A program made the translations under genes and the position numbers. Shown piece after piece: positions 4,684 through 22,464 of a stretch of DNA of 32,000 nt. The notes beneath the pieces are model-generated. The model worked only from the letters and a program-made list of their open reading frames with translations. It did no database searches and had not been told where the DNA came from. Each line of letters begins with the position of its first letter. Position 1 is the first letter of the stretch. The stretch is from Candidatus Nanosynbacter sp. BB002 (lineage in GTDB: Bacteria > Patescibacteriota > Saccharimonadia > Saccharimonadales > Saccharimonadaceae). The stretch lies in contig NZ_CP146064.1 of NCBI RefSeq assembly GCF_037013405.1, forward strand, positions 1 through 32,000. Reading direction: 5' to 3'.

Positions 4684-7600
4684 TGTACTCTCCTTGCGTA
4701 GTCCCAGTGCCACGGCTCATCTTTATACCAGCCAGGATTGTTACGGTCTCTTGCCCATGGTGGGTTGACAAAGCCGTATTTTGAGGCATTTGATGCTAGC
4801 CACAGATAAATTGGCGTATTAAAACCTGAACCACCTATATTAATATCTAGGGCTAGTCCATGTCCATGTTTTGATGTTCCTGGAGTTGCTTGTGTTATAC
4901 CGCTTGAGAAGTAATCTTGTTGTGTTGCTAATGTACGGTATGATTCGGTAATTGTCATGTGTTGACCACCATGTTCTTGAGCATAGGCTTCATTCATAGC
5001 ATCGAAAGCTTGAGCGGCCTTTGGATGCATGTAATGTCCTGGTGCAGTTTTCAACTCACTCATGGCTGACAGTGGAATCTCACCGTTTCTGTGTCCACCC
5101 CACGACGCAGGTTCATTTCCAAAAGTCTGTGCTTCTTCTAATTCCGGTGGACCGATAGCGTCGCCGACTGGTCCGCTGCTTGGCTGTTGTGCCCCAGTGT
5201 TGGCTGATGGATCATCAATTTCTTTTGGATAATATTTACCTTCTTTGTCGTCCGCCATCAAGGCCAGGTTGCCAGCTACGGTTAATTCCAAGGCACATGG
5301 ATCGGCCACACTGTACGTCGGGACTAAGTCGCCTTCATGAATCCCATAACTCGCTTCACGCTCTTTGGCTTTGGTTGAACAGACAGCATCGGTGTACTGA
5401 CTTGGGTCGGCTTTATACACTGCTTTGTCAGTAAAACCATGCCAAGTTACACCGAAAGCTCGCATGACGGCTGCTTGGTCATATTTGGCGGCATGCGTGT
5501 TAGTTGGCGTGATGGCAGACGCTAGGGCGACCGGTGCGCGTGCGATTAATCGCATGGTTGAAAAACCGGAAGTTGGCATAACGGCTAGTAACTGTCCAGC
5601 CACCGAACGCTTAAGTGTTGGGTCAAATAACTTCGCCATGAGTGGTTGTTCGCGGAATTCTTCGTCACGCTCTTGCTCGATCTGTTTTGCGAGCACACTG
5701 ACTTGCTGGTTGGTGAGGCGTGCCCCACCGATGCCGTCTGGCTGTTTGGAGCCTGAATCGGCGCCAGCTTGTCCAGCTTCAGTACTACTTTGCATAGTTG
5801 TTGTCAGTCCGCCGTGTAGAGCTTCAAAGTTATTGTTACCCGGCGCGTCAACCCCCACCTCTGGTATACCGAACAGCAAACTCACTGCCCAACCCATGGC
5901 TTTTTCGATCAAGCCTTCAGAGAGTTCAACCAGCTGCTTCAATCCTGGCAATTCCTGTAAATAACTAAAGAACCAGCTAAATACCTTACCGACCGTATCA
6001 CCAACAAAGTCAATGATCGCGCCGAACGTACTATTCCAGGCTTCAGCTATCCCGGCCAACACTTGCCAGACAGGATATTTCGTAAAGGTAGTGTAGTCTT
6101 TGACAATCTTTTTTTCTGGACAGACAAGCTCACCGGGATCTAAGGCAACCACCTTTTCTTCACCACCAACCTCGCACTTGGTGCGAATACCACCGTCCTC
6201 AGCGTAGGCTATTGGGTATAATAATGATGCTGCGGTGTTATTGCCGCCAAATGTTGCCTGAAATATTGGTGCTGCTTCGGCGCCGTCAAATAGCGAGGTT
6301 GCTAACTCAACATGTTGAATATTATCAATTGTTCCCGCCCGAATTTGGTCTCGCGTCAAGACTGGGCTAGCTTCTTCATCATAAGTGAACGCGGTATACA
6401 GCTGCTTCTTTTGGTCAGCTCCGACAATTTCAATAACCTTTTCATTAACTGCTCCAACAATCTTTGCAACCAAATCAATTGCTCCAATGATGGCGTTTGC
6501 AGCCGCTATTTTCTTAAACAGTTGCTTACTGATGATTTTACCTAGCGGTGTGTCTGGTGCTGCTTTGGACAGAGAATCAATATTATTAAGAGCTTCTTTT
6601 TGCCCTTTAATTTTTTTCACCTTTTCATCGGCTTTTGTCTTATTGTCACCTGTCGCTTTTTCAGCTTCTTTTTCTGCTTCGCTAATCTTACTATCGAGGT
6701 CGTTATTTAATTTATCTAACGTGTCTTGGCATTTTTTAGCGTCAGTACCATCCAAACATCCTAAATACGCTGCAAAACGAGGCGACATTTTAGCGGTGAT
6801 ACGTGTATTCATATTTAGCTTAATTTTAGCCTTAAAGTCAGCATATTTTTGACCAGCTTTTTCTGGTATGATGTTAAACTTTTTCACACCGTATTTTCGA
6901 TACAATACACGTTTAGATAGATAGCGCATGAAATAGTTACGTCCGTGAACCTTACGTGTCATCTTTTTTATATGACGACGCATATCTTTGTGAGATAATT
7001 CCTTTTCTACCCCTTGCAGGACAGAGTTCATATCTTTTGACTCAAGATGCATGGTAAATGAGGTCGCTTTACCACCCAGGGTGTTTCTACCACTTGCATT
7101 AAAGACAGCCTTAACGTTTCTTCCTTCTTTTTCAAATTTAGCATCAAGCTGTTCTTCAAACCACGTGCTATATTTTGTAGCTCCCAGGTGACACAAAACA
7201 CCACCGCCAGCACAAAACACGAGATTGGCATCGCCAGGATATGCGGTTTGCATCATTTTCATGGCGACCCAGCGTGTGGTGATATACTCGAGTCGTTGGT
7301 TGATGGCGTGCTGTGGCACAGAGCTGAGCTGGTCGGTGATGGTGGAGACCATGGCATCAAGCTTATATGGCAAAATTGTGAAAAATAACATCATCAGGCC
7401 AAACAACCCTCCACCGATACCGGCTGTGGCACCCCATTTTTTGCGAGTCATATTTGCCAAAAGGTTGCCGCGCTTTTTGTTGCCGGACTTACCCAAAGGA
7501 GACCGAGAGTATAGCTGTTCTTGATTATTAACGCTGTCCGCAGCGTTTAGTCCATCATCTTTCTTGTCGCCATCATAAAAATTATCATTGGCGGCATTAT

Positions 7601-7694
7601 TCTCCATGGAGTTCAGATATTTAGACGTTTGTTCAGAGGCCGGATTGAGCCGTTCATCAACATCTGGATCAGTCGTATAATCAATTCGTGGCAT
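4680..7694 (-). CDS. Large membrane-anchored protein with C-terminal M15 (VanY / D-Ala-D-Ala carboxypeptidase-like, LAS family) zinc peptidase domain
   Basis: 1004-aa ORF. One N-proximal TM (GIGGGLFGLMMLFFTILPY) and a K/E-rich coiled-coil segment. The last ~130 aa carry SKHGHGLALD and EPWHWDY (VanY-type H-x6-D and H-x-H metal ligands). Starts 2 nt after the VirB4 stop. Confidence 0.8.
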   Translation of the reverse strand: MPRIDYTTDPDVDERLNPASEQTSKYLNSMENNAANDNFYDGDKKDDGLNAADSVNNQEQLYSRSPLGKSGNKKRGNLLANMTRKKWGATAGIGGGLFGLMMLFFTILPYKLDAMVSTITDQLSSVPQHAINQRLEYITTRWVAMKMMQTAYPGDANLVFCAGGGVLCHLGATKYSTWFEEQLDAKFEKEGRNVKAVFNASGRNTLGGKATSFTMHLESKDMNSVLQGVEKELSHKDMRRHIKKMTRKVHGRNYFMRYLSKRVLYRKYGVKKFNIIPEKAGQKYADFKAKIKLNMNTRITAKMSPRFAAYLGCLDGTDAKKCQDTLDKLNNDLDSKISEAEKEAEKATGDNKTKADEKVKKIKGQKEALNNIDSLSKAAPDTPLGKIISKQLFKKIAAANAIIGAIDLVAKIVGAVNEKVIEIVGADQKKQLYTAFTYDEEASPVLTRDQIRAGTIDNIQHVELATSLFDGAEAAPIFQATFGGNNTAASLLYPIAYAEDGGIRTKCEVGGEEKVVALDPGELVCPEKKIVKDYTTFTKYPVWQVLAGIAEAWNSTFGAIIDFVGDTVGKVFSWFFSYLQELPGLKQLVELSEGLIEKAMGWAVSLLFGIPEVGVDAPGNNNFEALHGGLTTTMQSSTEAGQAGADSGSKQPDGIGGARLTNQQVSVLAKQIEQERDEEFREQPLMAKLFDPTLKRSVAGQLLAVMPTSGFSTMRLIARAPVALASAITPTNTHAAKYDQAAVMRAFGVTWHGFTDKAVYKADPSQYTDAVCSTKAKEREASYGIHEGDLVPTYSVADPCALELTVAGNLALMADDKEGKYYPKEIDDPSANTGAQQPSSGPVGDAIGPPELEEAQTFGNEPASWGGHRNGEIPLSAMSELKTAPGHYMHPKAAQAFDAMNEAYAQEHGGQHMTITESYRTLATQQDYFSSGITQATPGTSKHGHGLALDINIGGSGFNTPIYLWLASNASKYGFVNPPWARDRNNPGWYKDEPWHWDYARRVQ

Positions 7695-7696: not shown

Positions 7697-9538
7697 TTAT
7701 ACTGCTCCATACCCACCAATTGGTGTTTCAGACGGAAGCTGTTGTTTTACAGGTGAAGTATTAATCAGATCATACTCGGTATCACTGGCTTGAATCTGGA
7801 TGTGCACGTGGTTTTGTCCAGCAAAGAACAGCCCCTGTCCAACGGGGAAATTCGCTAAGCGTTTCTGCTCTTCCTCGGTTAGCTTAAACACACTAGAAAG
7901 CACATCAACGGCACTGGATGATTGCTTGAGAAGGAGCTGCATGGATGAGTTGGCAACGATAGCGCGGCCCATTTTACTGCCCACAAAGTCCTCGACGTCC
8001 TGAGTGATGGTAGTGAGTCCTAGTTGATATTTTCGGGCTCGCTTAGCTAGGCTAAACAAGAAGCTAGCTGAGTCTTCATATTTCATCAATTGCCATGCCT
8101 CGTCAACGATCAACATACGCTTTTTCTGGTCGGTTCGAGTGATATTCCAGATGTGATTCAATACAATATACATAGCCGTTGGGCGTAGTTCATCTTCCAG
8201 ATCTCGGATGTTAAAGACTACCATGGCGTTATTGATATCGATATTACTCTGCTGACTGAAAATACCAGCAAAGGTACCTGAAGTAAATTTACGCAGACGC
8301 TGTGCTAACTGTGGACCAGTGCCGCCCATGTGTAGTAATGTATCATACAAATCATGAATGGTTGGCGGTGTTGAATTGTGGGTTAATGGGTCCGACGTGA
8401 TACCAACACGAGCATAGGTGTCGATCAGTGCCTGGTCGATATCTGCTTCCTCTGCCGCGGTTAGTCCGATAGAACCAGCTACTGAACCACCCAACATTTG
8501 ACGCAATAAACCGTGCAGCGTCACCAAATTAGCACGTAACGCGTCGTCTGCTTCTTCGGTGTCAATCACTCGCGGTAGATCAAATGGATTGATGCGCGTG
8601 TCACTATTCAAACTCAAGCGTATATGACTACCGCCCACGGCATCACATAGCTTTTGGTATTCATTTTCCGGGTCGATGATGACAATGTCAGCGCCAGTCA
8701 TCATACTACGCAGTGCTTCCAGTTTCACTGTAAACGACTTACCAGCACCAGACTTTGCAAACACCACCATGTTGGCATTTTCTAGAGAAAATCGGTCAAA
8801 GATCACCAAACCATTGTTATGCATATTGATGCCGTACAACACACCCTTACCGTCGGTTAGGTCAGCAGAGGTGAATGGGAAGCTGGTGGAAATAGCACCA
8901 GTGTTCATGTTGCGGCGGATTTGTAATTGATCCATCAACTGAGGAATGGTGCTGTTCAGTCCCTGTTCTTGCTGATTTGACGCCACTTTACTAAAGATCA
9001 GCTGCTGACCAAAGATAGTTTCAATTTTGTGTTGAATAAAGTTCAGCTCATCAAGGCTATCGGCATAAATCGTCACATATAGTCCGTAACGGAAGAATTT
9101 TTCTGACCCAATCTGTAGCTGGTTACGCAGTTCTTCGGCGTCCTGCAAGGCAGCTTCCATGGCCGGGTCACGCACACGCCCCTTCTCTGCGTTGATATTC
9201 ATACTAGCTTCCAACTGAGTCACTTTTTTACGCAAATTGTTCAGCACCACCTGAGTGTCGACCGGGTAGATAAACATGCTGATATCCAACACCTCGTCGA
9301 TATTAATCACCGAACTCAACCAGCCGGTGTAAATTTCACGAGGATAACCATAGACGTAAATAGTACGGCCATATTTGGCACCCAGTCGGAAATAACTTGC
9401 TTGAATTTCCACACTACTTGGGGCGATAAAATCTCGCAGAGTTCTCACGCCAGTCAAGAAAGCCTGCTCGACCTCAGCTTGTTCGCGAGCACGCTGTTGA
9501 GCGGCGATATCGATGGCATCTAGTTTTTTCTTAGCCAT
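7697..9538 (-). CDS. virB4: VirB4/TrbE-family type IV secretion ATPase (Gram-positive type, lacks the extreme N-terminal domain)
   Basis: 613-aa ORF. Walker A VFAKSGAGKSFTVK, Walker B MLIVDEAWQLM. N-region FIAPSSVEIQASYFRLGAKYGRTIYVYGYPREIYTGWL is typical of Firmicute VirB4 homologs. Strong SD GGAGGAG and a TAATG overlap with the upstream gene. Confidence 0.9.
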   Translation of the reverse strand: MAKKKLDAIDIAAQQRAREQAEVEQAFLTGVRTLRDFIAPSSVEIQASYFRLGAKYGRTIYVYGYPREIYTGWLSSVINIDEVLDISMFIYPVDTQVVLNNLRKKVTQLEASMNINAEKGRVRDPAMEAALQDAEELRNQLQIGSEKFFRYGLYVTIYADSLDELNFIQHKIETIFGQQLIFSKVASNQQEQGLNSTIPQLMDQLQIRRNMNTGAISTSFPFTSADLTDGKGVLYGINMHNNGLVIFDRFSLENANMVVFAKSGAGKSFTVKLEALRSMMTGADIVIIDPENEYQKLCDAVGGSHIRLSLNSDTRINPFDLPRVIDTEEADDALRANLVTLHGLLRQMLGGSVAGSIGLTAAEEADIDQALIDTYARVGITSDPLTHNSTPPTIHDLYDTLLHMGGTGPQLAQRLRKFTSGTFAGIFSQQSNIDINNAMVVFNIRDLEDELRPTAMYIVLNHIWNITRTDQKKRMLIVDEAWQLMKYEDSASFLFSLAKRARKYQLGLTTITQDVEDFVGSKMGRAIVANSSMQLLLKQSSSAVDVLSSVFKLTEEEQKRLANFPVGQGLFFAGQNHVHIQIQASDTEYDLINTSPVKQQLPSETPIGGYGAV

Positions 9539-10452
9539 TAAAAATCTCCTCCATATGGCGATTCACCATTTCCCTTACGGATGTAAGTCGTCGTCAGATC
9601 ATTTGGGTTGCGGACTAATGGCTGACGTGCTGCAGTGTCAGGATTGTAGGAAATATAGAACAATTCTCCAAGCTGCCTGGTGTTGAGTTGCAAACTCTTC
9701 ACGCCCATGGCAAACAAACCATTCATCACCGTATCGATGCGGTTTTTGATCTCATCTTTTGCTTTTTCGTACATCGGCTGATCAATCCTGGTAATCAACG
9801 TTTCCTTCTTACCACTAAAGAAACTGTCAAACAGACCCTTTGCCTGCTGTTTCATGGCATTAACATCGCCGCCGGGGAAATATGGCACCACGATGAAAAA
9901 TCGCTTATCCATAATGTTTGCCTCTTGCGACAGCACTTCTATGAAGTTCATATAGTCATCCATCAACACATTAAGTAACATATTGTCTTGAGAGCGTCGA
10001 ATACGTGACAATCGATCAAGGTATGGACCGATATCAACACGCTGTGATCGTACTAGGATTTGAACTGGAAAATAGAGCGAGTTGAGTAGGTTTTGATAGC
10101 TAAATTCGATAGCCTCTCGCTCACGAGTACTCATCAAATCAAAGTTGATGGATTGACATTCTATCACTGCTCGAAAACTGCCGTCACTCATGATGATCAT
10201 GTTTTCACGCATTTCTGAAAATAATAACGTATTTTGTGTACTGATGGCGCTCTTTTTGTCTTTAGGAGCTGGTGGATTCTGTGGATTTGGAGCTGGCTGA
10301 CCTGGCTGAGTTATACCAGGCTGCATTGGCAACGCTGGCTGACCAGGTTGTGGCTGTTGTGGCGGTAATGGCTGACTAGGCTGTCCAGAAACGACCGGCG
10401 GTGTCGTCGGGTTGGGTGGTAACTGATATGGTTGTTGATTATCTGGTTGCAT
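9538..10452 (-). CDS. T4SS-associated protein: P/Q-rich N-terminus plus a domain resembling the extreme N-terminal domain of full-length Gram-positive VirB4 ATPases
   Basis: 304-aa ORF. The first ~65 aa are almost only P/Q/G/N. The segment MIIMSDGSFRAVIECQSINFDLMSTREREAIEFSYQNLLNSLYFPVQILVRSQRVD resembles my recollection of VirB4 N-termini. No TM and no NTPase motifs. Translationally coupled to virB4. Confidence 0.5.
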   Translation of the reverse strand: MQPDNQQPYQLPPNPTTPPVVSGQPSQPLPPQQPQPGQPALPMQPGITQPGQPAPNPQNPPAPKDKKSAISTQNTLLFSEMRENMIIMSDGSFRAVIECQSINFDLMSTREREAIEFSYQNLLNSLYFPVQILVRSQRVDIGPYLDRLSRIRRSQDNMLLNVLMDDYMNFIEVLSQEANIMDKRFFIVVPYFPGGDVNAMKQQAKGLFDSFFSGKKETLITRIDQPMYEKAKDEIKNRIDTVMNGLFAMGVKSLQLNTRQLGELFYISYNPDTAARQPLVRNPNDLTTTYIRKGNGESPYGGDF

Positions 10453-10459: not shown

Positions 10460-11389
10460 CTAGCGTAGTGAAATCACCACTTCCTCCTCAGCTGTTTCCT
10501 CTGAGCGTTTATGTATCCGATCTGCTTCTTTTTGTAGGGTCGCTATGGAAAGATCGGAATGATTATTTGCCAAATCTATTATACCAGGGTCAACAGGTTG
10601 TTGTATAGGTTGATTTTGGTCGGTTGGTGGCGTGACGGTAGGTCGTTCCCCTGCCGGAGACAGGACACCTTGACGCATGTGAGGGTACGGGTTGACGGTT
10701 AGTTTTGGTATATCTTCCTCTTGAGCTGCCATGAAAACTGCTGACTGAGTCGGCTGTTGTGTTGTTGGTGTTTGAGGTTTTTGCATGCGCTGTATCAACT
10801 GTTCTCGCCGCTGTTGGTCTGTCTCGGCGATCATATCAGCAATTTGTCGTGAAGTAGTGTTACCCCGATCTAAAATGTCTTCCTCTGCCTGAACGGCGGT
10901 ATTATAGAAATCAGCCTGTAGTGAACTGGCGGTATCTAAATTACCCGTTGCTTCCGGGTTGCCGACGCCGCGGACTGACCAGCCATGCGTGTCAACGATG
11001 TTTGCCAGATATGATAATCGTCGCTGGATCTCTCGTTGATCATAGTTCTTACTCAGGTTCTCTTCCTTAGTTTTTGGTGCTACCACTTCTATCAGCGTCT
11101 CTACTCCGTCTGGCTCCCAGAGCCGCACGCGCGGTTTTAAGAAAAATGATATCACTGCCGCAATATATATTTCCATCGGCTGTTCCTTACGTAGTGGCAA
11201 CGCTAATACGGTGAAAAACACCCCAAATGGCAAAGGAATGATTGCTAATGGTAACAAGGCGACTCCTAGCGCCCACGCTATACCAAAAAAGCCCACCGCG
11301 ATGATGAGAAACACAAATTGCTTAAAACTGAATGGCCCAAGCAGCTTGTCTTCTGCTTCCACATCCTGGGGCACTCTATACACAGCCAT
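10460..11389 (-). CDS. PrgI-family (VirB3-like) membrane protein with a long P/Q/T-rich C-terminal extension
   Basis: 309-aa ORF. N-terminus VYRVPQDVEAEDKLLGPFSFKQFVFLIIAVGFFGIAWALG followed by a second TM matches the PrgI-family pattern. The C-terminal half is low-complexity (QKPQTPTTQQPTQS, PTVTPPTDQNQPIQQPVDPG). Confidence 0.65.
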   Translation of the reverse strand: MAVYRVPQDVEAEDKLLGPFSFKQFVFLIIAVGFFGIAWALGVALLPLAIIPLPFGVFFTVLALPLRKEQPMEIYIAAVISFFLKPRVRLWEPDGVETLIEVVAPKTKEENLSKNYDQREIQRRLSYLANIVDTHGWSVRGVGNPEATGNLDTASSLQADFYNTAVQAEEDILDRGNTTSRQIADMIAETDQQRREQLIQRMQKPQTPTTQQPTQSAVFMAAQEEDIPKLTVNPYPHMRQGVLSPAGERPTVTPPTDQNQPIQQPVDPGIIDLANNHSDLSIATLQKEADRIHKRSEETAEEEVVISLR

Positions 11390-11414: not shown

Positions 11415-13913
11415 TTAACTAGTTAAATCCTCAGGCTTAATCCCTAGAGAAAGAGATATCTCTCGAATTGTATTACCAGTTTTACCAATTCGACTACTAA
11501 ACCGAGGATCGGTTTGTGCCAAAACAAGGTTCTTGCGCAACGTATCCAGACCAGCTTCATTGATTTGCGAGACAAAGCTTTGGTCGCTCAACGCTTCCTT
11601 TAGTGGCTTTAGGTAAGCCAAGTCTGAACCGACAATTGCTTCGGTCGACAAACCACCGATGTTAAGGTTATCGAGCATAAGTTTCCTCATGTAGTCTGGG
11701 CCGTTCATATTAACATTGTTGGCCTTAATAGCCGCTGCAGCTGCACCACCTAACCAAGCTGGTTTAGCAGAGTTGGACAGCAGCGCGTCACCGTATTCTT
11801 GTGCAAAGTCGTCATTAAGCGCACCGAAGTCGGTTTTTTGCAGCAAGCTTTGGATGGCCACGGCATCTTTACCACCTAACACGTGGTGAATCGCTGCATA
11901 GCGGATATCATCAGTAACCGTCAAGCCGCGTCGACTAACACCATTGGCCAATTCCACCATATCATCATTGCTGACGTTCATGGCATTGAGAATAGTCATA
12001 GCGTTCTCAATCGATTCCTTATTAGCCTTAGTGATGGTGCTACGTGCCGTTGACCACACACGCTGTGAACCACGGTCGTTACCAAAGTACATATTTTCCA
12101 CTGAACCTGCTTGGGCTCGCAACTCCTCCTGGTTGGCTAGATCGTTTGCTAAGATGTAGTCATTAACGCGCTGAATACTGTTTTTTCGCAGTCCTTGAAT
12201 CGCAATACTACGCGCTTCTCGTTGAGTTTCTTCCTGTAGTGTTTCATAGCGGCGGGCAGCTCTCTTTTTCAGGTTGGCTGGTGTCGGTGTACCTTCAACT
12301 TTCATCTCCTCATAAGCGTTTGCGGTTGTGACATCAGCTAGTGATAATTGGTCAGCAGCAGCCCGTGACTCAATATCAGCAATTTGGTTGGCGCGGGAAA
12401 GCTTATAGGCTGCGTCAGCCCGTTTTTGGTAGGCTTCTGAACGAGTTTTGAATTTACGCGAGCGGTAATTAGCCCAGCGCCCCATTTTGCGGATGCCGCT
12501 GAATTTACTTAGTTCGTCGTCAGCTCTGCCCAATGAATTTTTATGAGCCGCCAATTGACTGCGGTCACGTGACCAGTTTTTAGTCCGGTCGATAACACCA
12601 CGGTTTTTATTATTAACGATACCAGCTACTCGACCCAGCACACCGCCGCTCAGCTTGAACACCAGTGGTGCGATGGCTAGGGCTGAAACTTGCACTGCCA
12701 GTCCTAAAATCACCATAATCCATGAATTGGCGTTTTGTAGGATGATTAATCCTGCCAGCTGCGCGCCACCAAATACCACTGAAAATGCTGGGAAAAATAT
12801 CACCAGGGTGAACATTAAGTTTCGCCATTTTTCAAAGAATTTCTCGGTGCCTGGTAACAGATAGCACACGAAAGCCAGCGGTGATATGACCGTTAAGATA
12901 ATCAATAATGCTTGTCGTGCCGCCAAGATGATGAATACAACTGTCAGAGTCAATAAGATACTGGCAATGATGGGCAGTAGCCAGTAAGCGGCTGAAGCTA
13001 ACGATCCGCCAGTTGCTGCCAGTGCGCCATATACGCCTGCAGTCGCTGCGCCACCAGACAGGACCATGGCCACCAAGTCGCTCCAAGTTGGTAGTGGAGC
13101 ACCATTAAACGCGCCGTTTGCCGACACTTGAGAACGGATTTCGTTAAACATATCTTGTAGGGCGACACCAAAGATATTTGACAGATCGATCATCGCAGCA
13201 CATATGATGAAAGACAGGTTAACTAAAATTGCGGCGATAACCACTCGTGGAACTAGTTTTTTAATACCATAGTTACTGATGCCAACTGAGGTTAGCTGTG
13301 AATAAATAACGATCAAAAAGGCGACGATGAACGCTGCATTGGCGATGTTTCGCATGATGTCCCAGGCGACCTTTACCCCAGAGCTATTGTTGGAGCTGTC
13401 TATCGCTGGTGTAGTCATCAGGTCGGAAATCCACGTGTACACTTCATCAATTCCTGAGGCGATTCCGTTAGAAATTGGGCAAATAAACCAACCCGTTCCC
13501 CCTCTCACGTCACATTCTGACTCACTAGGGTTACTGTCCTGTTTGACCTCGATATTCTCTGGTTCGCCTGACTGTGTTGGTGTACTGCCGTTTATGGTGT
13601 ATCTAGCGTATTTCGCGGTAGTAGCAGTTCGTGGATTGCTATTTCCAGCGAAAAATACCACTGTTGATTGATTGCCTTCGGTAGCCTCATAGACCCAGTC
13701 TTTACTGTCGCGACCAAGCAGTTTTTTACGAGCTGTGTCGTTAACTGGTTTGAGGGTTTTGCCATCAACGACCAGTGAGTCGCTTTTCCACTGAGCCTCA
13801 GCGGCATAAACTGAGGTAGAGTTGATGAGTATACCACTAAAAAACCCGACAAAAATACTAATAGTCAGTATGGCAAACCACTGCGACCGACGTATTTGCG
13901 GACGCACTCGCAT
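11415..13913 (-). CDS. VirB6/TrbL-like polytopic membrane protein, paralog 2, with a long cytoplasmic C-terminal domain
   Basis: The ORF extends to 13946. The start at 13913 (MRVRPQIRRSQWFAIL) is preferred because GGAG lies 9 nt upstream. It has a periplasmic/external ~150-aa domain, then motif GGTGWFICPI, then 6 or more hydrophobic helices (NIANAAFIVAFLIVIYSQLTSVGISNYGIKKLVPRVVIAAILVNLSF). A ~400-aa soluble tail is paralogous to that of the next gene. Confidence 0.7.
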   Translation of the reverse strand: MRVRPQIRRSQWFAILTISIFVGFFSGILINSTSVYAAEAQWKSDSLVVDGKTLKPVNDTARKKLLGRDSKDWVYEATEGNQSTVVFFAGNSNPRTATTAKYARYTINGSTPTQSGEPENIEVKQDSNPSESECDVRGGTGWFICPISNGIASGIDEVYTWISDLMTTPAIDSSNNSSGVKVAWDIMRNIANAAFIVAFLIVIYSQLTSVGISNYGIKKLVPRVVIAAILVNLSFIICAAMIDLSNIFGVALQDMFNEIRSQVSANGAFNGAPLPTWSDLVAMVLSGGAATAGVYGALAATGGSLASAAYWLLPIIASILLTLTVVFIILAARQALLIILTVISPLAFVCYLLPGTEKFFEKWRNLMFTLVIFFPAFSVVFGGAQLAGLIILQNANSWIMVILGLAVQVSALAIAPLVFKLSGGVLGRVAGIVNNKNRGVIDRTKNWSRDRSQLAAHKNSLGRADDELSKFSGIRKMGRWANYRSRKFKTRSEAYQKRADAAYKLSRANQIADIESRAAADQLSLADVTTANAYEEMKVEGTPTPANLKKRAARRYETLQEETQREARSIAIQGLRKNSIQRVNDYILANDLANQEELRAQAGSVENMYFGNDRGSQRVWSTARSTITKANKESIENAMTILNAMNVSNDDMVELANGVSRRGLTVTDDIRYAAIHHVLGGKDAVAIQSLLQKTDFGALNDDFAQEYGDALLSNSAKPAWLGGAAAAAIKANNVNMNGPDYMRKLMLDNLNIGGLSTEAIVGSDLAYLKPLKEALSDQSFVSQINEAGLDTLRKNLVLAQTDPRFSSRIGKTGNTIREISLSLGIKPEDLTS

Positions 13914-13975
13914 TTTCAACCACTCCATTACTGTAAATGGTAGCATTTTTTAGCGTAAAAGTCAACTATATGAAT

Positions 13976-16900
13976 CTATCGGCCAAACGCAGTAGGCGGT
14001 CGGTTGCGTCGGTGCTGTGACCGTCCAGTGCCACTGGTGCCACCCTGGTCAATATAGCTCGGTGGAATACTGGTAGCACTCGTCGGATCAGAGGATCTGT
14101 CTACCTGCACAGTAACGTTAACCTGTGGAGCTGGAGCTTGTGTTTGACCACCTGAAGACAATGAATCTGGCTTTGGAGCTTCTACTCCTCGTGCCTGCTC
14201 TTTGATGGCGTAGTAGCGATCAGGAGTCATGCTTGGTGCCTGAGAAGGTGTTGGCTGTGCCACGCCCTGTGGAGCTTGATTTTGCTGCAATGGTGGTACG
14301 GATAATGATTCTGCGGGTATTGATGTTGATAACTTTTTCATTTTAGACGTTGACATTTTTAAGGCCATAGATTCAAAGATATCAGCAGATTCGGCACTAG
14401 CTTGACTGAGATTTCGTGAATTATTTGCGACTTTCTTTGCTTTTTCTACTGTTAATCCACCTTCGTTTATGGCATCAGTAAGAGCGCTTGCACTTTGAGT
14501 AGCAAGTGTTTCGGTGGATAAGCCGCCCACAGACTTGCTTGTCATGGCTGCCAACTCATCACTAGTAACACTATAGCTTTTATTCCCTTCACCTATTGCA
14601 TCAAACCCTGCAACACCGGCTGCGGCTACTCCAGCATCGTACTTCTTTACATTGCCGAGGGCCTTCCCCATCTCGATACTGGTAATTGCTCCGCCGCTTT
14701 CTAGATATTTACGTAATTGTCCTGCGCCCCAGGCGCCCGAGTTGGATAATTCTTCTGCTGCTGCTGCTTGAACGTATTTGTCATCTGACCGTAGAGCTTT
14801 AGCTAAATTACCGTTATATTCAAACCGCAATTTTTTGGCTGCAGCTTCTTGAGATAGTTTATGAATATACTCTTGACCACCAGTAGTAGCTGCCGCAAAC
14901 CCAAGCCGCTTATCCAGTTCACTTCCAGAAGCTTCAGCCAGCCCTTCTCGGTAGCGCTGCTGTTCGCTTTGTTCTGCCAGAGCTGCTCGGGTTTCTCGGT
15001 CGAGTGAACGTTGGTTTATCTTTCTAAAGCCCCGTTGCAGACCACCACTCCAGACACGTCTAGGAGCCTTACTCTTGCTAAAATCTTTCGCCATAAATTC
15101 ACGACGTTTCATACCTGCTCGACGTTTAGCAAACTTACTTCCTGCATTAAGCGCTGGTGCTGATGCCTTGTTCAATAGTCCATTTGCCCGCCCCATCAGG
15201 TTGCCGATGATAGCATTGGATTTCAGTGCCATACCAAGGATGACGAAAGTACCAGCAAATAAAAGTGCCAAAGCCATCAGTTGTTGTACCACTCCGCCGG
15301 TTTTGTCAGCAAGGGCAGTAAAGGCTAATAATTTTAATCCGCCGTAGTATATTGCCGCCAAAGGATAGAGGAAGACCATACCGGTGAAGACTTTTTTCCA
15401 CTTGTCAAAGACACTTTGGGTGTTTGGTAAAATCCAAGCTGCAAATGCCAATGGAGCTAAGATTGCCAGCACCGGTATCACTGCTGATCGAAATACCAAT
15501 GCTAACAACCCTGAGACGATGCCGATCACACCTGGAACGATTGCCATAAGCACAAACATAAACAGGGTTCCAATCCCGAAAACTGAGGCAGCAATTGTTC
15601 CACCAATTAGTGTCGCTCCAGCCGCCGTGCCGCCACCTGCTAAAATTGCTGTCAATAAGGCGCCCCAACCAACATCTTTGTAACTCATATTTTGTATCGG
15701 AGCTGTAATGATTCCTAGCAGAGTACTACCAAGGATGTTTGCGGTATCAACGATGACTTGGATGACAAAGTAGGATATATTCACTGCAACCGCAGCGATG
15801 ATGAAACGAGGTAGCATTTTCTTGATGCCGTAGTTAGAGATACCGACATTTGATACTTGTGAGATAATAATCAAGATAAATACCAGTGCTAACAAGACAT
15901 TAGCAAGGTCTCGCATAGTTTTCCAAGCATCATATGTATTTCCTGTTGCCTGCAAGGGACTTGTAACTAAATATTCTTCTAACATCCCCCAGACCGAGTC
16001 GGCAAAGTCAGCCAGTTTGTCAATAACTGGGCAGATAAACCACCCGATACCCGTTAGTTCACTAGTACACGTTTTTTCCTCTTTTTCTTCTCCTGCCCCC
16101 TCGGTCGACTGTGCTGTAGCGTCAGCGCTTTGCTCCGGAGTATCCCCTACGGAAAGTTCCTTCTGTTCATCTTTATGTTCAGACGCATATTTGGCAAACT
16201 TATCAAAAGCACCCCTGTTGTTTTGGAGCCAAGAACCGATATCGCTACAGCTTACTTCGACTAATCCTCCCTCAGTGTCGTCGGTTGCTGCCAACCAGAC
16301 TTTTTCATTACCCTTGGAAGTCTTATAAATCATGTCGGCGGTTTTGCCACCTGTACTGGTAAATGGAATTTTGTAGTAATAATACCCCGAGCTATCTGGA
16401 TTTTCTTTAGGGATTTCCTTGAGAGATTTATCACCGCTAGCAGAACAACCGCTAGCAGAACTAGTAAATGTTTTTGAATACATATACCATTGTTCGGCGC
16501 TGCCTGAAGCTATAGAAGGTAGGCTGCCGGTGGCATTTTTGATACCGTCTTTGAAACGTTCTTTAATGGCCGCGCCACCCTTTTTTGGTGCACAACCACC
16601 CGGAGGATTTTCGTCAGGAGCTAAATTACTACTAGAATAGTAAACAGTGTATGAAGTAAAATAATTTGGTTTTGATACACTCCGTAAGTCGTTAACATTT
16701 TGTGTAAAACGACCCCAGGAATTCCATTCATACTTTTTACATCTTTCCCAATTTCGAAATACCCAGCCAGCTTTGGTTTGATCAATAAAAAATTTACCAC
16801 CCATATGCCGGTAGAAGTCAGCATATTTAGAAGAGCCCTCCCAAATATCAATCCCCGCTTTTAGGAGGCTAGCACAGCTGAGATCTCCACCGATTTGTTT

Positions 16901-17230
16901 TGTGATGGGGTCGACGCCTGAGTAGGATTTAATACCGCCTTTAGTATTTTTTCCCACAAAGGTATTTGCACGCTCCTCATTATCACCGTTAGATGGCGCC
17001 CAGTTAGAGTCGGTGCTTGTCGTGTTTCTATACCGCATCCCCTCGAAATCGGTCATACATGTCCAATCGTTGGTGCCACGCTTCATTAAATTAGCGTAAA
17101 GTAGTGTTGATTCAACTTTTTGCTTTAACTTCAAACTTTTTGCAGCTTCTGCCTGCGGAGCAAGTAACACCGCTGATATAAGTGCCACTACTAGTGTGGA
17201 GAGTACTATCAACCCTCGCTTTTTACTCAT
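13976..17230 (-). CDS. VirB6/TrbL-like polytopic membrane protein, paralog 1, with a large Cys-containing extracellular N-domain and a P/Q-rich C-terminus
   Basis: The ORF extends to 17263. The start at 17230 (MSKKRGLIVLSTLVVALISAVLLAPQAEA signal peptide) is preferred. After a ~390-aa exported domain come TGIGWFICPV and DLANVLLALVFILIIISQVSNVGISNYGIKKMLPRFIIAAVAVNISYF, which are clearly paralogous to 11415-13913. Long C-terminal tail. Confidence 0.7.
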   Translation of the reverse strand: MSKKRGLIVLSTLVVALISAVLLAPQAEAAKSLKLKQKVESTLLYANLMKRGTNDWTCMTDFEGMRYRNTTSTDSNWAPSNGDNEERANTFVGKNTKGGIKSYSGVDPITKQIGGDLSCASLLKAGIDIWEGSSKYADFYRHMGGKFFIDQTKAGWVFRNWERCKKYEWNSWGRFTQNVNDLRSVSKPNYFTSYTVYYSSSNLAPDENPPGGCAPKKGGAAIKERFKDGIKNATGSLPSIASGSAEQWYMYSKTFTSSASGCSASGDKSLKEIPKENPDSSGYYYYKIPFTSTGGKTADMIYKTSKGNEKVWLAATDDTEGGLVEVSCSDIGSWLQNNRGAFDKFAKYASEHKDEQKELSVGDTPEQSADATAQSTEGAGEEKEEKTCTSELTGIGWFICPVIDKLADFADSVWGMLEEYLVTSPLQATGNTYDAWKTMRDLANVLLALVFILIIISQVSNVGISNYGIKKMLPRFIIAAVAVNISYFVIQVIVDTANILGSTLLGIITAPIQNMSYKDVGWGALLTAILAGGGTAAGATLIGGTIAASVFGIGTLFMFVLMAIVPGVIGIVSGLLALVFRSAVIPVLAILAPLAFAAWILPNTQSVFDKWKKVFTGMVFLYPLAAIYYGGLKLLAFTALADKTGGVVQQLMALALLFAGTFVILGMALKSNAIIGNLMGRANGLLNKASAPALNAGSKFAKRRAGMKRREFMAKDFSKSKAPRRVWSGGLQRGFRKINQRSLDRETRAALAEQSEQQRYREGLAEASGSELDKRLGFAAATTGGQEYIHKLSQEAAAKKLRFEYNGNLAKALRSDDKYVQAAAAEELSNSGAWGAGQLRKYLESGGAITSIEMGKALGNVKKYDAGVAAAGVAGFDAIGEGNKSYSVTSDELAAMTSKSVGGLSTETLATQSASALTDAINEGGLTVEKAKKVANNSRNLSQASAESADIFESMALKMSTSKMKKLSTSIPAESLSVPPLQQNQAPQGVAQPTPSQAPSMTPDRYYAIKEQARGVEAPKPDSLSSGGQTQAPAPQVNVTVQVDRSSDPTSATSIPPSYIDQGGTSGTGRSQHRRNRPPTAFGR

Positions 17231-17254
17231 GTTTTGATGCCCTTTCAGAAAAAA

Positions 17255-17283
17255 CATATACACTACAAATTGTAGTGTATATG
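17255..17283 (-). terminator. Perfect 29-bp palindrome (14-bp arms) followed by T6 on the minus strand: terminator of the lipoprotein gene and/or operator in front of the VirB6-like genes
   Basis: Sequence is CATATACACTACAA-A-TTGTAGTGTATATG. On the minus strand it is followed by TTTTTTCTG. It lies between the stop at 17315 and the start at 17230. Confidence 0.55.
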
Positions 17284-17314: not shown

Positions 17315-18370
17315 TTACGCTTTACCTTCTTCACGCAATTTTGAATACGGAACATTTTCTTTACGACTAAACTCTAGCTCGCTAATAACAACAGTACCAG
17401 GGCCGATTTTCTTAAATGTAACATTACCCTGCATACCGCCAACTCCAGCTGTTAGTACCCATTCCACAGGCATCGTACCAACGCTATTATTAGCAAGGAA
17501 ATCAGTAATTTTCTCAGAATGCTGGGCGCCATTATCTGGTCGGAATGAGAAAGTCATAGAAATAGTATCACCATCGTATTTTGGCTCACCATGTTCCATT
17601 CCTGCAATAGTGACAGGCCCCAATATCATTTCTGGGTCTATTGGGTTCGTATAGGCCGTCCTGTGAAGACCATTCTCATCATTTTCAAGGTGAGTGCTGT
17701 AATCGATCCGTAATGCTTCTTGTGCATCTATAAGATTTTCCAAGAGACTCTTGAAACCATTCCCGTACTTAATTGGTTGTGATTTTCCACGTGCGTCATT
17801 GCCTGGAGTTTCAAAAACTCCTTTTATGCGATTGAGGATATATGGGGTTAGTGTTGATCCGAAAGTAGGAGGTGTGCTGTTTGCAGAACGATCTTTCTGT
17901 GCCAAATAACTGAACCTTTTTTCGTCATATACCCTACTATATTCAGATGACGGTGGATTTTCCTGATCTTTTTTATCAGCAACTACGTTAACTGTTGTTT
18001 CAATTATAGTACTCAGGTGTCGCATTAATTCGTCGGGGCTTTCGAAAGCACTAACGGGAATGGTTAATTTCTTAGCCTCTTCTTCAGGGAATCTTGTGTC
18101 TACATACGATTCGCAAAGCTCTACCTCTGTTGAAGGATCTAGGTCCAGTGTACGCATCCCTTCAGGAGTTGGAGACACTTCTGGTGAAGGACTGTTCTCT
18201 GCATGCTCAGGCAGTTGTCCTGATGTTTGTTCTGATGTAGTTTCTTTCTTACTACCGCAGGCTGTTAAAGCCATCGCTCCAGCACTGGTCACAAAAAGAC
18301 CCAGGACCCCTCGGCGGTTTATTTCATATACTGATGTTTCTTGTGAATCGCTTGGGTTATACTCTTTCAT
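17315..18370 (-). CDS. Putative Tat-type lipoprotein of unknown function, first gene of the minus-strand T4SS-like cluster
   Basis: 351-aa ORF. N-terminus EINRRGVLGLFVTSAGAMALTACGSKKE has a twin-arginine-like motif, an h-region and an L-T-A-C lipobox. I do not recognise any family in the remainder. Confidence 0.7.
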   Translation of the reverse strand: MKEYNPSDSQETSVYEINRRGVLGLFVTSAGAMALTACGSKKETTSEQTSGQLPEHAENSPSPEVSPTPEGMRTLDLDPSTEVELCESYVDTRFPEEEAKKLTIPVSAFESPDELMRHLSTIIETTVNVVADKKDQENPPSSEYSRVYDEKRFSYLAQKDRSANSTPPTFGSTLTPYILNRIKGVFETPGNDARGKSQPIKYGNGFKSLLENLIDAQEALRIDYSTHLENDENGLHRTAYTNPIDPEMILGPVTIAGMEHGEPKYDGDTISMTFSFRPDNGAQHSEKITDFLANNSVGTMPVEWVLTAGVGGMQGNVTFKKIGPGTVVISELEFSRKENVPYSKLREEGKA

Positions 18371-18726: not shown

Positions 18727-19116
18727 ATGATAAACAGAAATTTCTTTACAAAAACCATCATTGCTGTAGCCCTACTAGTCGGTTTTACTGTTTCAGCTCC
18801 GGTATTTGCTGAGGAGGAGGGTGCGAAGAAATGTGCTGGCGTCGATACTTCAACCATAGAATGTGGCGGTAAAAGCGGTAAAGAGGCTATCTTTGATATC
18901 GTTAAACAGGCGGTAAAAATTTTAACCATGGGTGTAGGTGTCACAGCTGTTGGTGCGGTAGTTTATGGTGGCATATTATTTTCATCATCTGGAGATAAGC
19001 CAGAAAATATCAAAAAAGCTCGCGAGATCTGGATCAATGTTGTGATAGGGTTGCTGCTATACGCCTTCTTTGTCACGCTGACTCAATTCTTAATTCCAGG
19101 AGGAGTATTCTCATGA
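18727..19116 (+). CDS. VirB2/TrbC-like T4SS pilin paralog P1
   Basis: 129 aa. Signal peptide (AVALLVGFTVSAPVFA), variable region with two Cys (KKCAGVDTSTIECGG), TM1, loop YGGILFSSSGDKPENIKKAREIW, TM2. Stop overlaps the P2 start (ATGA). Confidence 0.7.
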   Translation: MINRNFFTKTIIAVALLVGFTVSAPVFAEEEGAKKCAGVDTSTIECGGKSGKEAIFDIVKQAVKILTMGVGVTAVGAVVYGGILFSSSGDKPENIKKAREIWINVVIGLLLYAFFVTLTQFLIPGGVFS

Positions 19117-19538
19117 TCAAACGGGCAATTATAGCAGTTACTTTGGTGTTTATAGGTAGCTTTGGTATGGCATTTGTCAGCACACAACCTGCCTTAGCTG
19201 GTGCTTGTGATGAACGTGGTCGTGTTATAACTCTAAAACCTTGGTTTTATAACTTAACATCTGGTAATTCGTGTGATTTAAAGAGTCCGAGTGAGGCTGG
19301 TGGTTTTGGCCCATACATCTGGCAAATTGCCTTAAACCTTATTGAAGATTTATTCCAAATCACGGGTTATATTGCAGCAGGATACATTATATACGGTGGT
19401 TTTCTGTTCATCACCAGCTCAGGATCACCAGATCGAGCGGTTCGTGGACGAAAAACAGTTTTTAATGCCATTATTGGCTTAGTTATAGCTATCGCCTCAG
19501 TAGGTGTAGTAAACTGGGTATCAGGAGCATTATTGTAA
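19113..19538 (+). CDS. VirB2/TrbC-like T4SS pilin paralog P2
   Basis: 141 aa. Signal peptide ending PALA-GA, two Cys (GACDERG...GNSCDLK), TM1, loop YGGFLFITSSGSPDRAVRGRKTVFNAIIG, TM2. Confidence 0.7.
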   Translation: MIKRAIIAVTLVFIGSFGMAFVSTQPALAGACDERGRVITLKPWFYNLTSGNSCDLKSPSEAGGFGPYIWQIALNLIEDLFQITGYIAAGYIIYGGFLFITSSGSPDRAVRGRKTVFNAIIGLVIAIASVGVVNWVSGALL

Positions 19539-19540
19539 CT

Positions 19541-19837
19541 ATGGAAAAGTTTATCGTTCAAATTGTTAGCCAACTAGGTTCCCCAAGTGACGTAGGAATT
19601 CCTGATCGTAAAGATGATAAGGTGGCATTACAAAGTATAGCGAACCTGGTGTTTGCTATCTCAGCGGTCGTAGCTATCATTTCCATCATCATCTATGGCA
19701 TCATGTATAGTGTATCCGCTGGTGATCCAGGCAAAGTCTCGAAAGCTAAAAACGGTATCATCTATTCGGTGGTTGGTTTGCTGGTGGTATGGTGCGCTTT
19801 TGTTATTACAAATTATGTCGCAGGGAGGTTTAACTAA
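19541..19837 (+). CDS. VirB2/TrbC-like pilin paralog P3, without a recognisable signal peptide
   Basis: 98 aa. Only the two-TM core with loop YGIMYSVSAGDPGKVSKAKNGIIYSVVG. The N-terminus MEKFIVQIVSQLGSPSDVGIPDRKDD is not signal-like. Starts 2 nt after P2, and its stop overlaps the P4 start (TAATG). Confidence 0.6.
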   Translation: MEKFIVQIVSQLGSPSDVGIPDRKDDKVALQSIANLVFAISAVVAIISIIIYGIMYSVSAGDPGKVSKAKNGIIYSVVGLLVVWCAFVITNYVAGRFN

Positions 19838-20211
19838 TGAAAAAAATCGTAACTATTACCGCTACTCTGGCTCTCGCCATAGTCGGTGGTTTTTTGCTGT
19901 CACAAACTGCTTCAGCGGTTGGTATTTATGACGCGTGTAGTACCGATCCAAATAACATTGTCTGTGCTAACAGTAGTGAATCAGTTGACCCGGTCATCAA
20001 AACAGTCATCAGATATCTGCTGATTATCTCTGGTATTGTATCAGTTGTGATGGTTATCATTGGTGGGTTGAAATACAGCACCTCCAATGGCGACAGTGCT
20101 AAGCTAAGCTCTGCTAAGAACACTATCATGTACGCCATCATTGGCGTGATCATCTCTGCTCTTGCGTATGCTATCGTTGATTACGTATTTCTTCGCATAA
20201 TTGGTAAATAG
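19837..20211 (+). CDS. VirB2/TrbC-like T4SS pilin paralog P4
   Basis: 124 aa. Signal peptide ending TASA, two Cys (DACSTDPNNIVCAN), TM1, loop GGLKYSTSNGDSAKLSSAKNTIMYAIIG, TM2. Confidence 0.75.
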   Translation: MKKIVTITATLALAIVGGFLLSQTASAVGIYDACSTDPNNIVCANSSESVDPVIKTVIRYLLIISGIVSVVMVIIGGLKYSTSNGDSAKLSSAKNTIMYAIIGVIISALAYAIVDYVFLRIIGK

Positions 20212-20243
20212 AGCCCAACACAGTATAGACAGACCGTAAAATA

Positions 20244-20252
20244 TGGTATAAT
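20244..20252 (+). promoter_or_regulatory. Extended -10 promoter (TGgTATAAT) for pilin paralog P5
   Basis: Sequence is aaatatGGTATAATgaag, about 45 nt upstream of the ATG at 20298. SD AAGGAAAGGAA lies in the leader. Confidence 0.55.
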
Positions 20253-20297
20253 GAAGTAAAATAACAATCAATTTCCCAAGGAAAGGAAACGAAATTC

Positions 20298-20678
20298 ATG
20301 AAAAAAACCATTATTAAAATAGCTGGCGCGTTTGCCCTTCCTGTGCTGGTTATGGGTGTCGTATTTTTGGCTTCTGGCGACAATGCATTTGCGCAGGTTC
20401 GAGAAGGTTTGAACAAGGTTCAAAACGCCAATACTGGTGCTAGTGCTAACGTTGACGACATCATCTCAAAGTCAATTAACTTTGCATTGATGGCGATTGC
20501 TATCGTATCTGTGTTTATGTTGATCCTTGGTGGTTTCAAATACACCACATCAAACGGTGACAGTGCTAAGGTGACGTCTGCTAAGAATACCATTATGTAC
20601 TCCTTGATCGGTCTGTTGATTGCTATCTTTGCCTACGCTATCGTTAACTTTGTGGTCAATAAGGTTACCGGTAACTAA
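20298..20678 (+). CDS. VirB2/TrbC-like T4SS pilin paralog P5 (own promoter, SD and terminator)
   Basis: 126 aa. Signal peptide ending NAFA, no Cys, TM1, loop GGFKYTTSNGDSAKVTSAKNTIMYSLIG, TM2. Confidence 0.8.
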   Translation: MKKTIIKIAGAFALPVLVMGVVFLASGDNAFAQVREGLNKVQNANTGASANVDDIISKSINFALMAIAIVSVFMLILGGFKYTTSNGDSAKVTSAKNTIMYSLIGLLIAIFAYAIVNFVVNKVTGN

Positions 20679-22012: not shown

Positions 22013-22464
22013 ACGTGGTGATATGCGCTACCTTTGGCAATTTCCTGTGCGCGATAAAGTTGTTCTGTCAGGAGTAGACGCACAAGTTGATGCGGAAACA
22101 CCAGTTTTGACAGAGACCAAACGACATCAGCCCGCTCGCGTAGTTCCGAAGAAACACCAAATGCCCCGCCAATGATGATGACCACTGACCGACTGTGGGC
22201 GAAGCACTCTTCCAGGAGAGCTGATAACTCCGGAGACGACAGATTGTTGCCTCTTTCGTCCAGTAAAATGACAAAATGGTCTGGTTTGATTTGCTTGAGT
22301 ATCCGTTCAGACTCTTCCTGACGCGCTCTGGGGCCTTCCAGCGAAGAATTAGCCAACAATACCCATTCGACATTCCACGGGGCTCTCAGGCGCTTCTGGT
22401 AGTATTCTAGGCCATCTATGACCCATGAATTATTTTTCTTGCCGATTGTGATAATTTTGAGCAT
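22009..22464 (-). CDS. rlmH: 23S rRNA (pseudouridine1915-N3)-methyltransferase RlmH (SPOUT family)
   Basis: Real start is MLKIITIGKK at 22464. The longer ORF to 22605 is antisense to a tRNA. Family pattern YYQKRL...ILLDERG...SSPELS...IIGGAFG...LSKLVFPHQLVRLLLTEQLYRA. Overlaps the comF stop by 4 nt. Confidence 0.88.
   Translation of the reverse strand: MLKIITIGKKNNSWVIDGLEYYQKRLRAPWNVEWVLLANSSLEGPRARQEESERILKQIKPDHFVILLDERGNNLSSPELSALLEECFAHSRSVVIIIGGAFGVSSELRERADVVWSLSKLVFPHQLVRLLLTEQLYRAQEIAKGSAYHHV

Follow-up and report, generated by a model that had tools for sequence, protein, structure and literature searches.

A probable ancient duplication of extended VirB6 proteins in the origin-proximal type IV secretion locus of Saccharibacteria

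What are the two giant membrane proteins encoded side by side near the replication origin of a Saccharibacteria chromosome, and why are there two of them? We addressed this question in Candidatus Nanosynbacter sp. BB002, in a stretch of 32,000 nucleotides (nt) covering positions 1-32,000 of contig NZ_CP146064.1 (assembly GCF_037013405.1), hereafter called the window. The window opens with dnaA (1-1353) and dnaN (1608-2708) and represents the replication-origin region of a Saccharibacteria (TM7) chromosome. It contains an origin-proximal type IV secretion system (T4SS) of the Gram-positive type, and the two proteins, which we name p1 (the upstream or 'A-type' copy) and p2 (the downstream or 'B-type' copy), are encoded in its operon. 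We conclude, with a probability of about 0.7, that p1 and p2 go back to an ancient duplication and are extended VirB6 subunits of this chromosomal system with divided roles.

The open reading frames (ORFs) of p1 and p2, 1095 and 843 amino acids (aa) long, both lie on the minus strand in a single operon, separated by 29 nt. The true start is likely Met12 in both cases, because it is preceded by a Shine-Dalgarno-like GGG/GGAG and because gene callers report orthologue products of 1091 aa and 834 aa. Each protein can be divided into four parts, namely an N-terminal Sec signal, a probably exported N-domain, a core of the VirB6 type and a tail of about 400 aa, which are distributed as follows (a slash marks the predicted cleavage site).

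13976..17263, minus strand: p1, putative extended VirB6/TrbL_3 paralogue, 1095 aa, probable start Met12 at 17230
17144..17230, minus strand: p1 predicted Sec-type signal peptide MSKKRGLIVLSTLVVALISAVLLAPQAEA/AK, residues 12-40, from direct reading and hydropathy
16079..17143, minus strand: p1 N-domain, probably exported, with Cys, residues 41-395, restricted to its clade and without relationship to the p2 N-domain
15194..16078, minus strand: p1 VirB6-like polytopic core, residues 396-690
16025-16069, minus strand: p1 Cys-loop CTSELTGIGWFICPV, in the core
15806-15844, minus strand: p1 GISNYGIKKMLPR, in the core
15398-15433, minus strand: p1 hallmark ILPNTQSVFDKW, in the core
14354..15193, minus strand: p1 tail, residues 691-970, beginning with a basic juxtamembrane stretch that leads into a predicted helical ARM-like domain (model confident over about 800-970)
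13979..14353, minus strand: p1 C-terminal Q/P/S-rich region, predicted disordered, residues 971-1095, with a conserved basic R...RPP at its end
11415..13946, minus strand: p2, putative extended VirB6/TrbL_3 paralogue, 843 aa, probable start Met12 at 13913
13806..13886, minus strand: p2 predicted signal peptide or signal anchor, residues 21-47, ...NSTSVYA/AEA
13512..13805, minus strand: p2 small N-domain, probably exported and predicted beta-rich, residues 48-145, kept in all B-type orthologues
12627..13511, minus strand: p2 VirB6-like polytopic core, residues 146-440
13473-13514, minus strand: p2 Cys-loop, in the core
13245-13283, minus strand: p2 GISNYGIKKLVPR, in the core
12909-12923, minus strand: p2 conserved AARQA, in the core
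12825-12860, minus strand: p2 hallmark LLPGTEKFFEKW, in the core
11418..12626, minus strand: p2 tail, residues 441-843, in which a basic juxtamembrane stretch and a coiled insertion precede a predicted helical ARM-like domain (model confident over 570-840)

The basic motif R......RPP at the C-terminus of p1 is conserved across the p1 family consensus and could be a short linear interaction motif.

That the two proteins share a conserved block was claimed in an earlier note on this DNA, and the block represents real homology. Residues 373-718 of p1 and 120-465 of p2 are 26% identical over 365 aa (BLASTP E 4e-45), and an hhalign comparison of the two core family profiles gives a probability of 100% (E 2e-55). 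The two paralogue families have 30 invariant positions in common, including the Cys pair of C-x(n)-GxGWxxCP and the residues of P-x-T...F-x-K-W; both cysteines of the Cys-loop motif are invariant among 142 family members. The motifs quoted in the earlier note are present as CTSELTGIGWFICPV, CDVRGGTGWFICPI, GISNYGIKK(M/L)(L/V)PR and (I/L)LP(N/G)T(Q/E)x(V/F)F(D/E)KW, but its spacing of five to eight residues between the first Cys and G-T-G is wrong for p2, where this Cys lies four residues before G-T-G.

Outside the core, the domain sizes that had been proposed are also found: the N-domain comprises about 355-400 aa with eight Cys in p1 and about 100-150 aa with two Cys in p2, and the tails 409 and 405 aa. 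The two N-domains are unrelated, as had been proposed, with an hhalign probability of at most 1.4%. The relationship of the tails is less easily seen. The earlier note had pointed to a shared GGLSTE, but this match taken alone is at chance level (BLASTP E 1.1), and the motif is not conserved in the orthologues of either protein. Shallow family profiles (17-20 sequences) suggested that the tails are non-homologous (E 0.006-0.015), a possibility overturned by deep profiles, built from 26 upstream-type and 151 downstream-type tails, and by bridging matches of hidden Markov models (HMMs). The deep p1-type and p2-type profiles align with an hhalign probability of 95.5% (E 1.4e-8). When the juxtamembrane segment is removed, the probability is 89.5% (E 2e-6) over 184 columns, pairing about 741-935 of p1 with about 569-786 of p2 so that the two GGLSTE motifs align with each other; with reversed sequences as controls, E is 0.06-0.13. 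In addition, an HMM of the p2-type tail matches upstream-type tails of other lineages (E 1e-14 to 8e-8). These comparisons indicate that the tails are remote but real homologues. Among the 80 Saccharibacteria loci examined, every tail domain is accompanied by a core. Since cores and tails are both homologous, the duplication took in core and tail, the ectodomains alone being different, and we regard p1 and p2 as ancient duplicates, that is, paralogues with unrelated N-domains.

To which family, then, do these paralogues belong? The earlier note had called them VirB6/TrbL-like, and this identity is upheld by family matches in orthologues and relatives, an alignment with the TrwI profile, hydropathy and operon position. 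Precomputed Pfam annotations place TrbL_3 (PF19590) on the orthologues, with E≤1e-5 for the p1 type and weakly (≤1e-3) for the p2 type, and of 51 diverse proteins chosen to represent the family, 5 match TrbL (PF04610), the best at E 3.2e-6. A deep core profile aligns with the family of R388 TrwI (120 relatives) at an hhalign probability of 71.7% (E 3.5e-5 over 65 columns, against 0.05-0.08 for reversed controls); the alignment falls on the hydrophobic block and the P-x-T-x-x-F-F-x-x-W loop, where LLPGTEKFFEKW in p2 and ILPNTQSVFDKW in p1 are the counterparts of WQPTHRFFDQW in TrwI. The p1, p2 and TrwI families are collinear in averaged hydropathy and charge profiles, with a shared order of two spans, an acidic loop, a long hydrophobic block, a short motif loop, two spans and a basic tail. 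In these family averages the acidic loop has about 58 aa, but about 31 aa in the p1 family, and the hydrophobic block has 49-55 residues with a central Lys/Arg, being merged in the p1 family into a hydrophobic stretch of 77 residues.

The genomic setting points in the same direction. From 5' to 3', the minus-strand operon encodes a 351-aa ORF, p1, p2, a PrgI/VirB3-like protein, a TrsD-like protein, VirB4, a 1004-aa VanY protein, a 420-aa protein and a 242-aa ORF. The pair thus lies directly upstream of the PrgI/VirB3-like, TrsD-like and VirB4 genes, with cell-wall hydrolases and T4SS pilins close by, and occupies the position of the VirB6-like prgH of pCF10, directly upstream of prgI-prgJ-prgK. 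The window is collinear in gene order with the Southlakia epibionticum ML1 genome. An extended VirB6 has been defined as having at least five hydrophobic helices plus at least one large hydrophilic domain (PMC12857230), and p1 and p2 fit this definition, their polytopic core having an N-domain (about 100-400 aa) on one side and a tail (about 405-409 aa) on the other. Taken together, TrbL_3 on the orthologues, TrbL in relatives and the hallmark aligned with TrwI argue that both proteins are extended VirB6 proteins; their membership in the TrbL/VirB6 superfamily appears well supported.

How p1 and p2 sit in the membrane bears on what each part may do. From Met12, both begin with a basic n-region and a 19-residue hydrophobic stretch, followed by an AxA-type site (AEA/A in p1, VYA/A in p2). 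The N-domains, which have a conserved Cys pair, contain eight Cys in p1 and two in p2, the tails contain none, and the first 60 residues of the tails contain 12-14 K+R against 3-5 D+E. The most likely arrangement is the one given in the earlier note, with an exported N-domain and a cytoplasmic tail, as suggested by the Sec signals with their AxA sites, the N-domain Cys pair and the basic start of the tail. An N-domain outside and a tail in the cytoplasm require an odd number of spans. By hydropathy the number is five, six or seven: a long block forming one span gives five, and a hairpin gives six. AlphaFold2 models the block as a single helix of 44-46 residues. The VirB6 protein of A. tumefaciens has been mapped as N-out, with five spans, and C-in. 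We consider the N-out/C-in topology quite probable for both p1 and p2, on the basis of these sequence features.

If p1 and p2 arose by duplication, have the copies been kept together, and do they evolve alike? Every named homologue, and all 80 related loci from the GTDB species set, come from Candidatus Saccharibacteria/Nanosynbacter. Two core-bearing ORFs were found in 67 of these 80 loci, usually an upstream-type directly followed by a downstream-type. Of the 13 single-copy loci, 4 are cut at a contig end and 9 belong to environmental lineages with one copy within the 6.5-10 kb of flank available. We assigned distant upstream copies by N-domain cluster, position and tree, as the HMM score alone mislabels them p2-type. 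The family itself is very large: a search of representatives gave 22,980 clusters at E≤1e-3, the matches listed being close relatives. A tblastn search with the p2 core found no match in 72,556 plasmids.

The two types differ sharply in their N-domains. BLAST groups the downstream-type N-domains into a single cluster (77 members). It splits those of the upstream type, most of which have 6-18 Cys, into three or more clusters without links between them (33, 18 and 9 members) and singletons; in profile comparison, only one pair of upstream-type clusters is marginally related (55.6%, E 1e-4). In a neighbour-joining tree, the B-type cores group tightly in a single clade, whereas deep branches separate the A-type cores. 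Rates of nonsynonymous (dN) and synonymous (dS) substitution were estimated among 14-18 close genomes, with the 18 closest used for the individual domains of p1 and 14 for the comparison of operon genes. Both proteins are under purifying selection (dN/dS 0.045 in p2, 0.149 in p1), yet p1 changes about five times faster than p2 (dN 0.093 vs 0.018; VirB4, 0.002). The fastest domain of p1 is its helical tail (dN 0.131) and not its ectodomain (dN 0.052, dN/dS 0.09), which gives no sign of positive selection in the per-domain dN/dS of the closest 18 genomes. Within the clade the p1 N-domain is under purifying selection and is not the fastest part of the protein; between lineages it is swapped for BLAST-unrelated Cys-rich domains. 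Such swapping, as seen in sequence clusters, would be compatible with contact to the host; it is not evidence for it.

The same genomes reveal an uneven distribution of silent changes. The dS values are 0.6-0.98 in the N-domain, core and helical tail of p1, 0.25 at its 3' end and 0.38-0.40 in p2. That dS is higher in p1 than in its 3' end or in p2 suggests allelic exchange or an old polymorphism limited to the gene upstream and the first three kilobases of p1.

These observations may be combined in the following scenario. An ancient whole-gene duplication of one extended VirB6 would have been followed by a division of labour, in which the slow-evolving p2 became the invariant structural subunit and the fast-evolving p1, with its lineage-specific, Cys-rich and exchangeable ectodomain, the adaptable one. 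Both would be membrane-translocon subunits acting with PrgI and the split VirB4; their N-domains would face outward and their tails the cytoplasm, where the helical tails could serve as protein-docking platforms. Several points weigh against this reading. Neither p1 nor p2 of the window has a Pfam-A match at the gathering threshold by hmmscan (TrbL reaches E 1.7 in p2 and is absent from p1), and neither has an NCBIfam match at threshold. The similarity to TrwI is confined to about 65 columns. AlphaFold2 models of the membrane cores are poor (pLDDT, the predicted local distance difference test, 30-58), and no solved structure was matched by sequence or by fold: a Foldseek search of the full-length models, with their poorly modelled cores, against the PDB returned nothing at E≤1e-3, and profile searches of PDB sequences with three alignments returned low-complexity noise only. 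The equivalence of p1 and p2 to the ML1 genes is positional only. Six hydrophobic segments, with the 52-residue block as a hairpin, would put N-domain and tail on the same side of the membrane. Finally, a p1/p2 hetero-oligomer and docking by the tails are pure inference.

Do the two copies work together at all? We may also hypothesize that p1 and p2 form separate homo-oligomeric channels, used at different stages of the life cycle or for different substrates. The strongly different evolutionary rates of the two proteins would agree with this, as would the essentiality calls in ML1, where the downstream-type gene is scored as essential throughout and the upstream-type gene as essential only after the first time point, at which it is scored as non-essential. 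However, the genes are adjacent in one operon with a gap of only 29 nt, both copies co-occur in most genomes and both are needed in ML1. Separate channels are thus a possible arrangement, and of the alternatives the least unlikely, though we do not favour it over two subunits with divided roles.

A second alternative concerns topology. With an even number of spans, the N-domain and the 400-aa tail would both be extracellular, and the tail would be a wall-spanning or host-facing domain similar to the periplasmic C-domain of F-plasmid TraG. Family-averaged hydropathy does give six segments after the N-domain if the block of 52-55 residues turns back as a hairpin around its conserved Arg. Against this stand the excess of K+R over D+E in the first 60 tail residues (12-14 vs 3-5), which fits the positive-inside rule, the layout collinear with TrwI/VirB6, the single 44-46-residue helix of the AlphaFold2 block and the N-out, five-span, C-in map of A. 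tumefaciens VirB6. We therefore judge a same-side arrangement, and with it a TraG-like role of the tail, improbable.

The tails and ectodomains themselves raise a third question, that of function. Models of both tails are confident and all-helical (pLDDT 80-89 over 570-840 of p2, 80-87 over 800-970 of p1), and p1 ends in a disordered, Q/P/S-rich stretch of 125 residues. The best Foldseek matches of both tails are ARM/HEAT repeat proteins, at non-significant levels (E 0.08-0.1; TM 0.2-0.3). Wang et al. list the ECOD 'ARM repeat' at the C-termini of both large ML1 proteins (Table S2 of PMC10633639). In the models, the tails look like helical ARM-like repeats. The p2 N-domain is modelled as small and beta-rich (pLDDT 70-80) and is conserved across all B-type orthologues; for the p1 N-domain, of which there is a moderate model only, no recognisable relatives were found.

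The earlier note had suggested that the tails recruit substrate in place of a missing VirD4-type coupling protein and that the p1 ectodomain touches the host cell. There is no VirD4-like gene among the genes of the 32-kb window, and in the T4SS cluster of ML1 neither a coupling protein nor a relaxase could be recognised by Wang et al. (PMC10633639). The tails are confidently modelled as helical repeat-like domains, a fold that commonly binds proteins, and the A-type ectodomains vary among lineages. On the other hand, the tails have no P-loop NTPase or type IV coupling protein (T4CP) signature (T4SS-DNA_transf, TraG-D_C) in Pfam or NCBIfam, even at E≤10. VirD4 homologues occur elsewhere in 2,918 Patescibacteria genomes, and that of ML1 is non-essential (PMC12102498). 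The coupling protein is therefore 'missing' within the 32-kb window only; many Patescibacteria genomes have VirD4-like genes elsewhere (PMC12102498). Within the clade, purifying selection acts on the p1 N-domain (dN/dS 0.09), which changes more slowly than the p1 tail. Host contact and replacement of the coupling protein are not contradicted, yet they draw no support from the results here, and both seem doubtful. A wider version, in which p1 and the Tat-lipoprotein encoded upstream of it would form a host-specificity module and the ARM-like tails of p1 and p2 a docking platform for substrate or ATPase that makes a coupling protein dispensable, is to us equally speculative and unlikely.

Lastly, that p1 and p2 are permeases of an unrelated transporter, as the KEGG label ABC-2 permease (K01992) on the ML1 counterparts, the KEGG and PROKKA labels in Table S1/S2 of PMC10633639 and the weak Pfam support for the window proteins might imply, is very improbable, as no ABC permease or ATPase family is matched in Pfam or NCBIfam, no ABC ATPase is encoded in the operon, and the TrbL/TrbL_3 matches, hallmark motif and PrgI-VirB4 synteny indicate VirB6.

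What surrounds the pair? The other genes of the locus are listed below, with the Tat (twin-arginine translocation) signal protein first.

17315..18370, minus strand: Tat-signal/lipobox protein, 351 aa, upstream of p1
10460..11389, minus strand: PrgI/VirB3-like gene, directly downstream of p2
7697..10452, minus strand: split VirB4, made up of a 304-aa TraC-like/TrsD part (9538-10452) and a 613-aa CD1110-family ATPase (7697-9538)
4680-7694, minus strand: 1004-aa protein with a C-terminal VanY peptidase domain
between the VanY protein and the 242-aa ORF, minus strand: 420-aa phage-lysozyme-2 protein of the operon
2710-3438, minus strand: 242-aa ORF, last gene of the operon
18727-20678, plus strand: five T4SS_pilin genes, on the strand opposite to the T4SS operon

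The product of the 17315-18370 ORF has a Tat-like RRGVLGL motif, an LTAC lipobox and a Pro/Ser-rich linker, and is without a Pfam match. Its gene is by far the most variable of the T4SS operon among the 14 close genomes (dN 0.43, dS 1.13, dN/dS 0.38). VirB4 is encoded in two ORFs, as reported for Patescibacteria, and the stop of the TrsD part overlaps the start of the ATPase at 9538. About 880 aa of the 1004-aa protein are unexplained outside the VanY domain. The 242-aa ORF has one N-terminal membrane span and no family match, and occupies the position of a VirB8/PrgL-like component. The pilin array consists of five divergent PF18895 (T4SS_pilin) genes, all under purifying selection (dN/dS 0.03-0.09). 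Elsewhere in the window, a predicted plus-strand tRNA-Ser (CGA) at 22516-22604 and a minus-strand 198-aa SPOUT methyltransferase ORF at 22009-22605 overlap, the tRNA lying over the 5' part of the ORF; the true start of this ORF is probably further downstream, the orthologue being called at 151 aa.

How much of this was known? The origin-proximal T4SS of Saccharibacteria was described by McLean et al. in 2020 (PMC7427843), found essential for epibiotic growth by Wang et al. in 2023 (PMC10633639) and included in the survey of Patescibacteria T4SS loci by Quinonero-Coronel et al. in 2025 (PMC12102498). The VirB6 homologues of the locus, the lack of a linked coupling protein or relaxase, the pilin array and the position near the origin are already published in these three papers, and a supplementary table (PMC10633639) shows that ML1 has two large TrbL-like proteins whose ends are ARM-like. 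The same three papers do not discuss the pair as a phylum-wide ancient duplication, the homology of the tails or the split between a conserved and a variable copy. Our result leaves the current picture of the Saccharibacteria T4SS unchanged. Of all T4SSs, this one was the first found to be indispensable to the growth of its owner. Two non-redundant copies, one nearly invariant and one with an exchangeable ectodomain, together with their homologous helical tails, offer handles for genetics and structural work in strains that are now tractable.

Where do p1 and p2 stand among known systems? Canonical VirB6/TrbL proteins (PF04610), such as R388 TrwI and A. tumefaciens VirB6, have the same order of hydrophobic segments, the block with a basic residue and the P-x-T-x-x-F-F-x-x-W loop; they likewise have a basic start of the C-terminal part and are encoded beside VirB3/VirB4. 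They are, however, only about 300-350 aa long and lack a signal peptide, an N-terminal ectodomain and a 400-aa tail, all three of which are present in p1 and p2. Two motifs, the Cys-loop GxGWxxCP and GISNYGIKK, are peculiar to the Saccharibacteria family. Duplicated VirB6 proteins also occur in the Rickettsiales, which are obligately host-associated, reduced-genome, diderm Proteobacteria with a system of the MPF-T (mating-pair formation, type T) class; that duplication is probably independent of the one in Saccharibacteria, and its extensions are not known to be related. As in our pair, the copies of the Rickettsiales rvh system (RvhB6a-e; cited in PMC12102498) are adjacent, very large and furnished with hydrophilic additions.

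A close counterpart is S. epibionticum ML1, a member of the same phylum, which has the same origin-proximal operon, the same family and two large ARM-ended VirB6-like genes (SEML1_0011 and SEML1_0013), both essential by transposon sequencing (Tn-seq; Tables S1 and S2 of PMC10633639). Its gene for an NTF2-like protein with a Tat signal, SEML1_0012, lies between both copies, whereas in the window the Tat-signal gene is upstream of both; SEML1_0012, the positional counterpart of the 17315-18370 ORF, is non-essential by Tn-seq (PMC10633639). Among Gram-positive conjugation proteins, PrgH of pCF10 resembles p1 and p2 in operon position, upstream of PrgI-PrgJ, and TcpH of pCW3 likewise combines an N-terminal membrane domain with a long hydrophilic C-terminal tail, which is low-complexity and not ARM-like. 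Comparison of the core and tail profiles with single PrgH (E 0.076) and TcpH (E 0.24) sequences by hhalign detected no similarity. PrgH, TcpH and ConG (of ICEBs1) are each encoded by a single copy, on conjugative elements with a relaxase and a T4CP of their own, whereas p1 and p2 are a two-copy pair residing on the chromosome.

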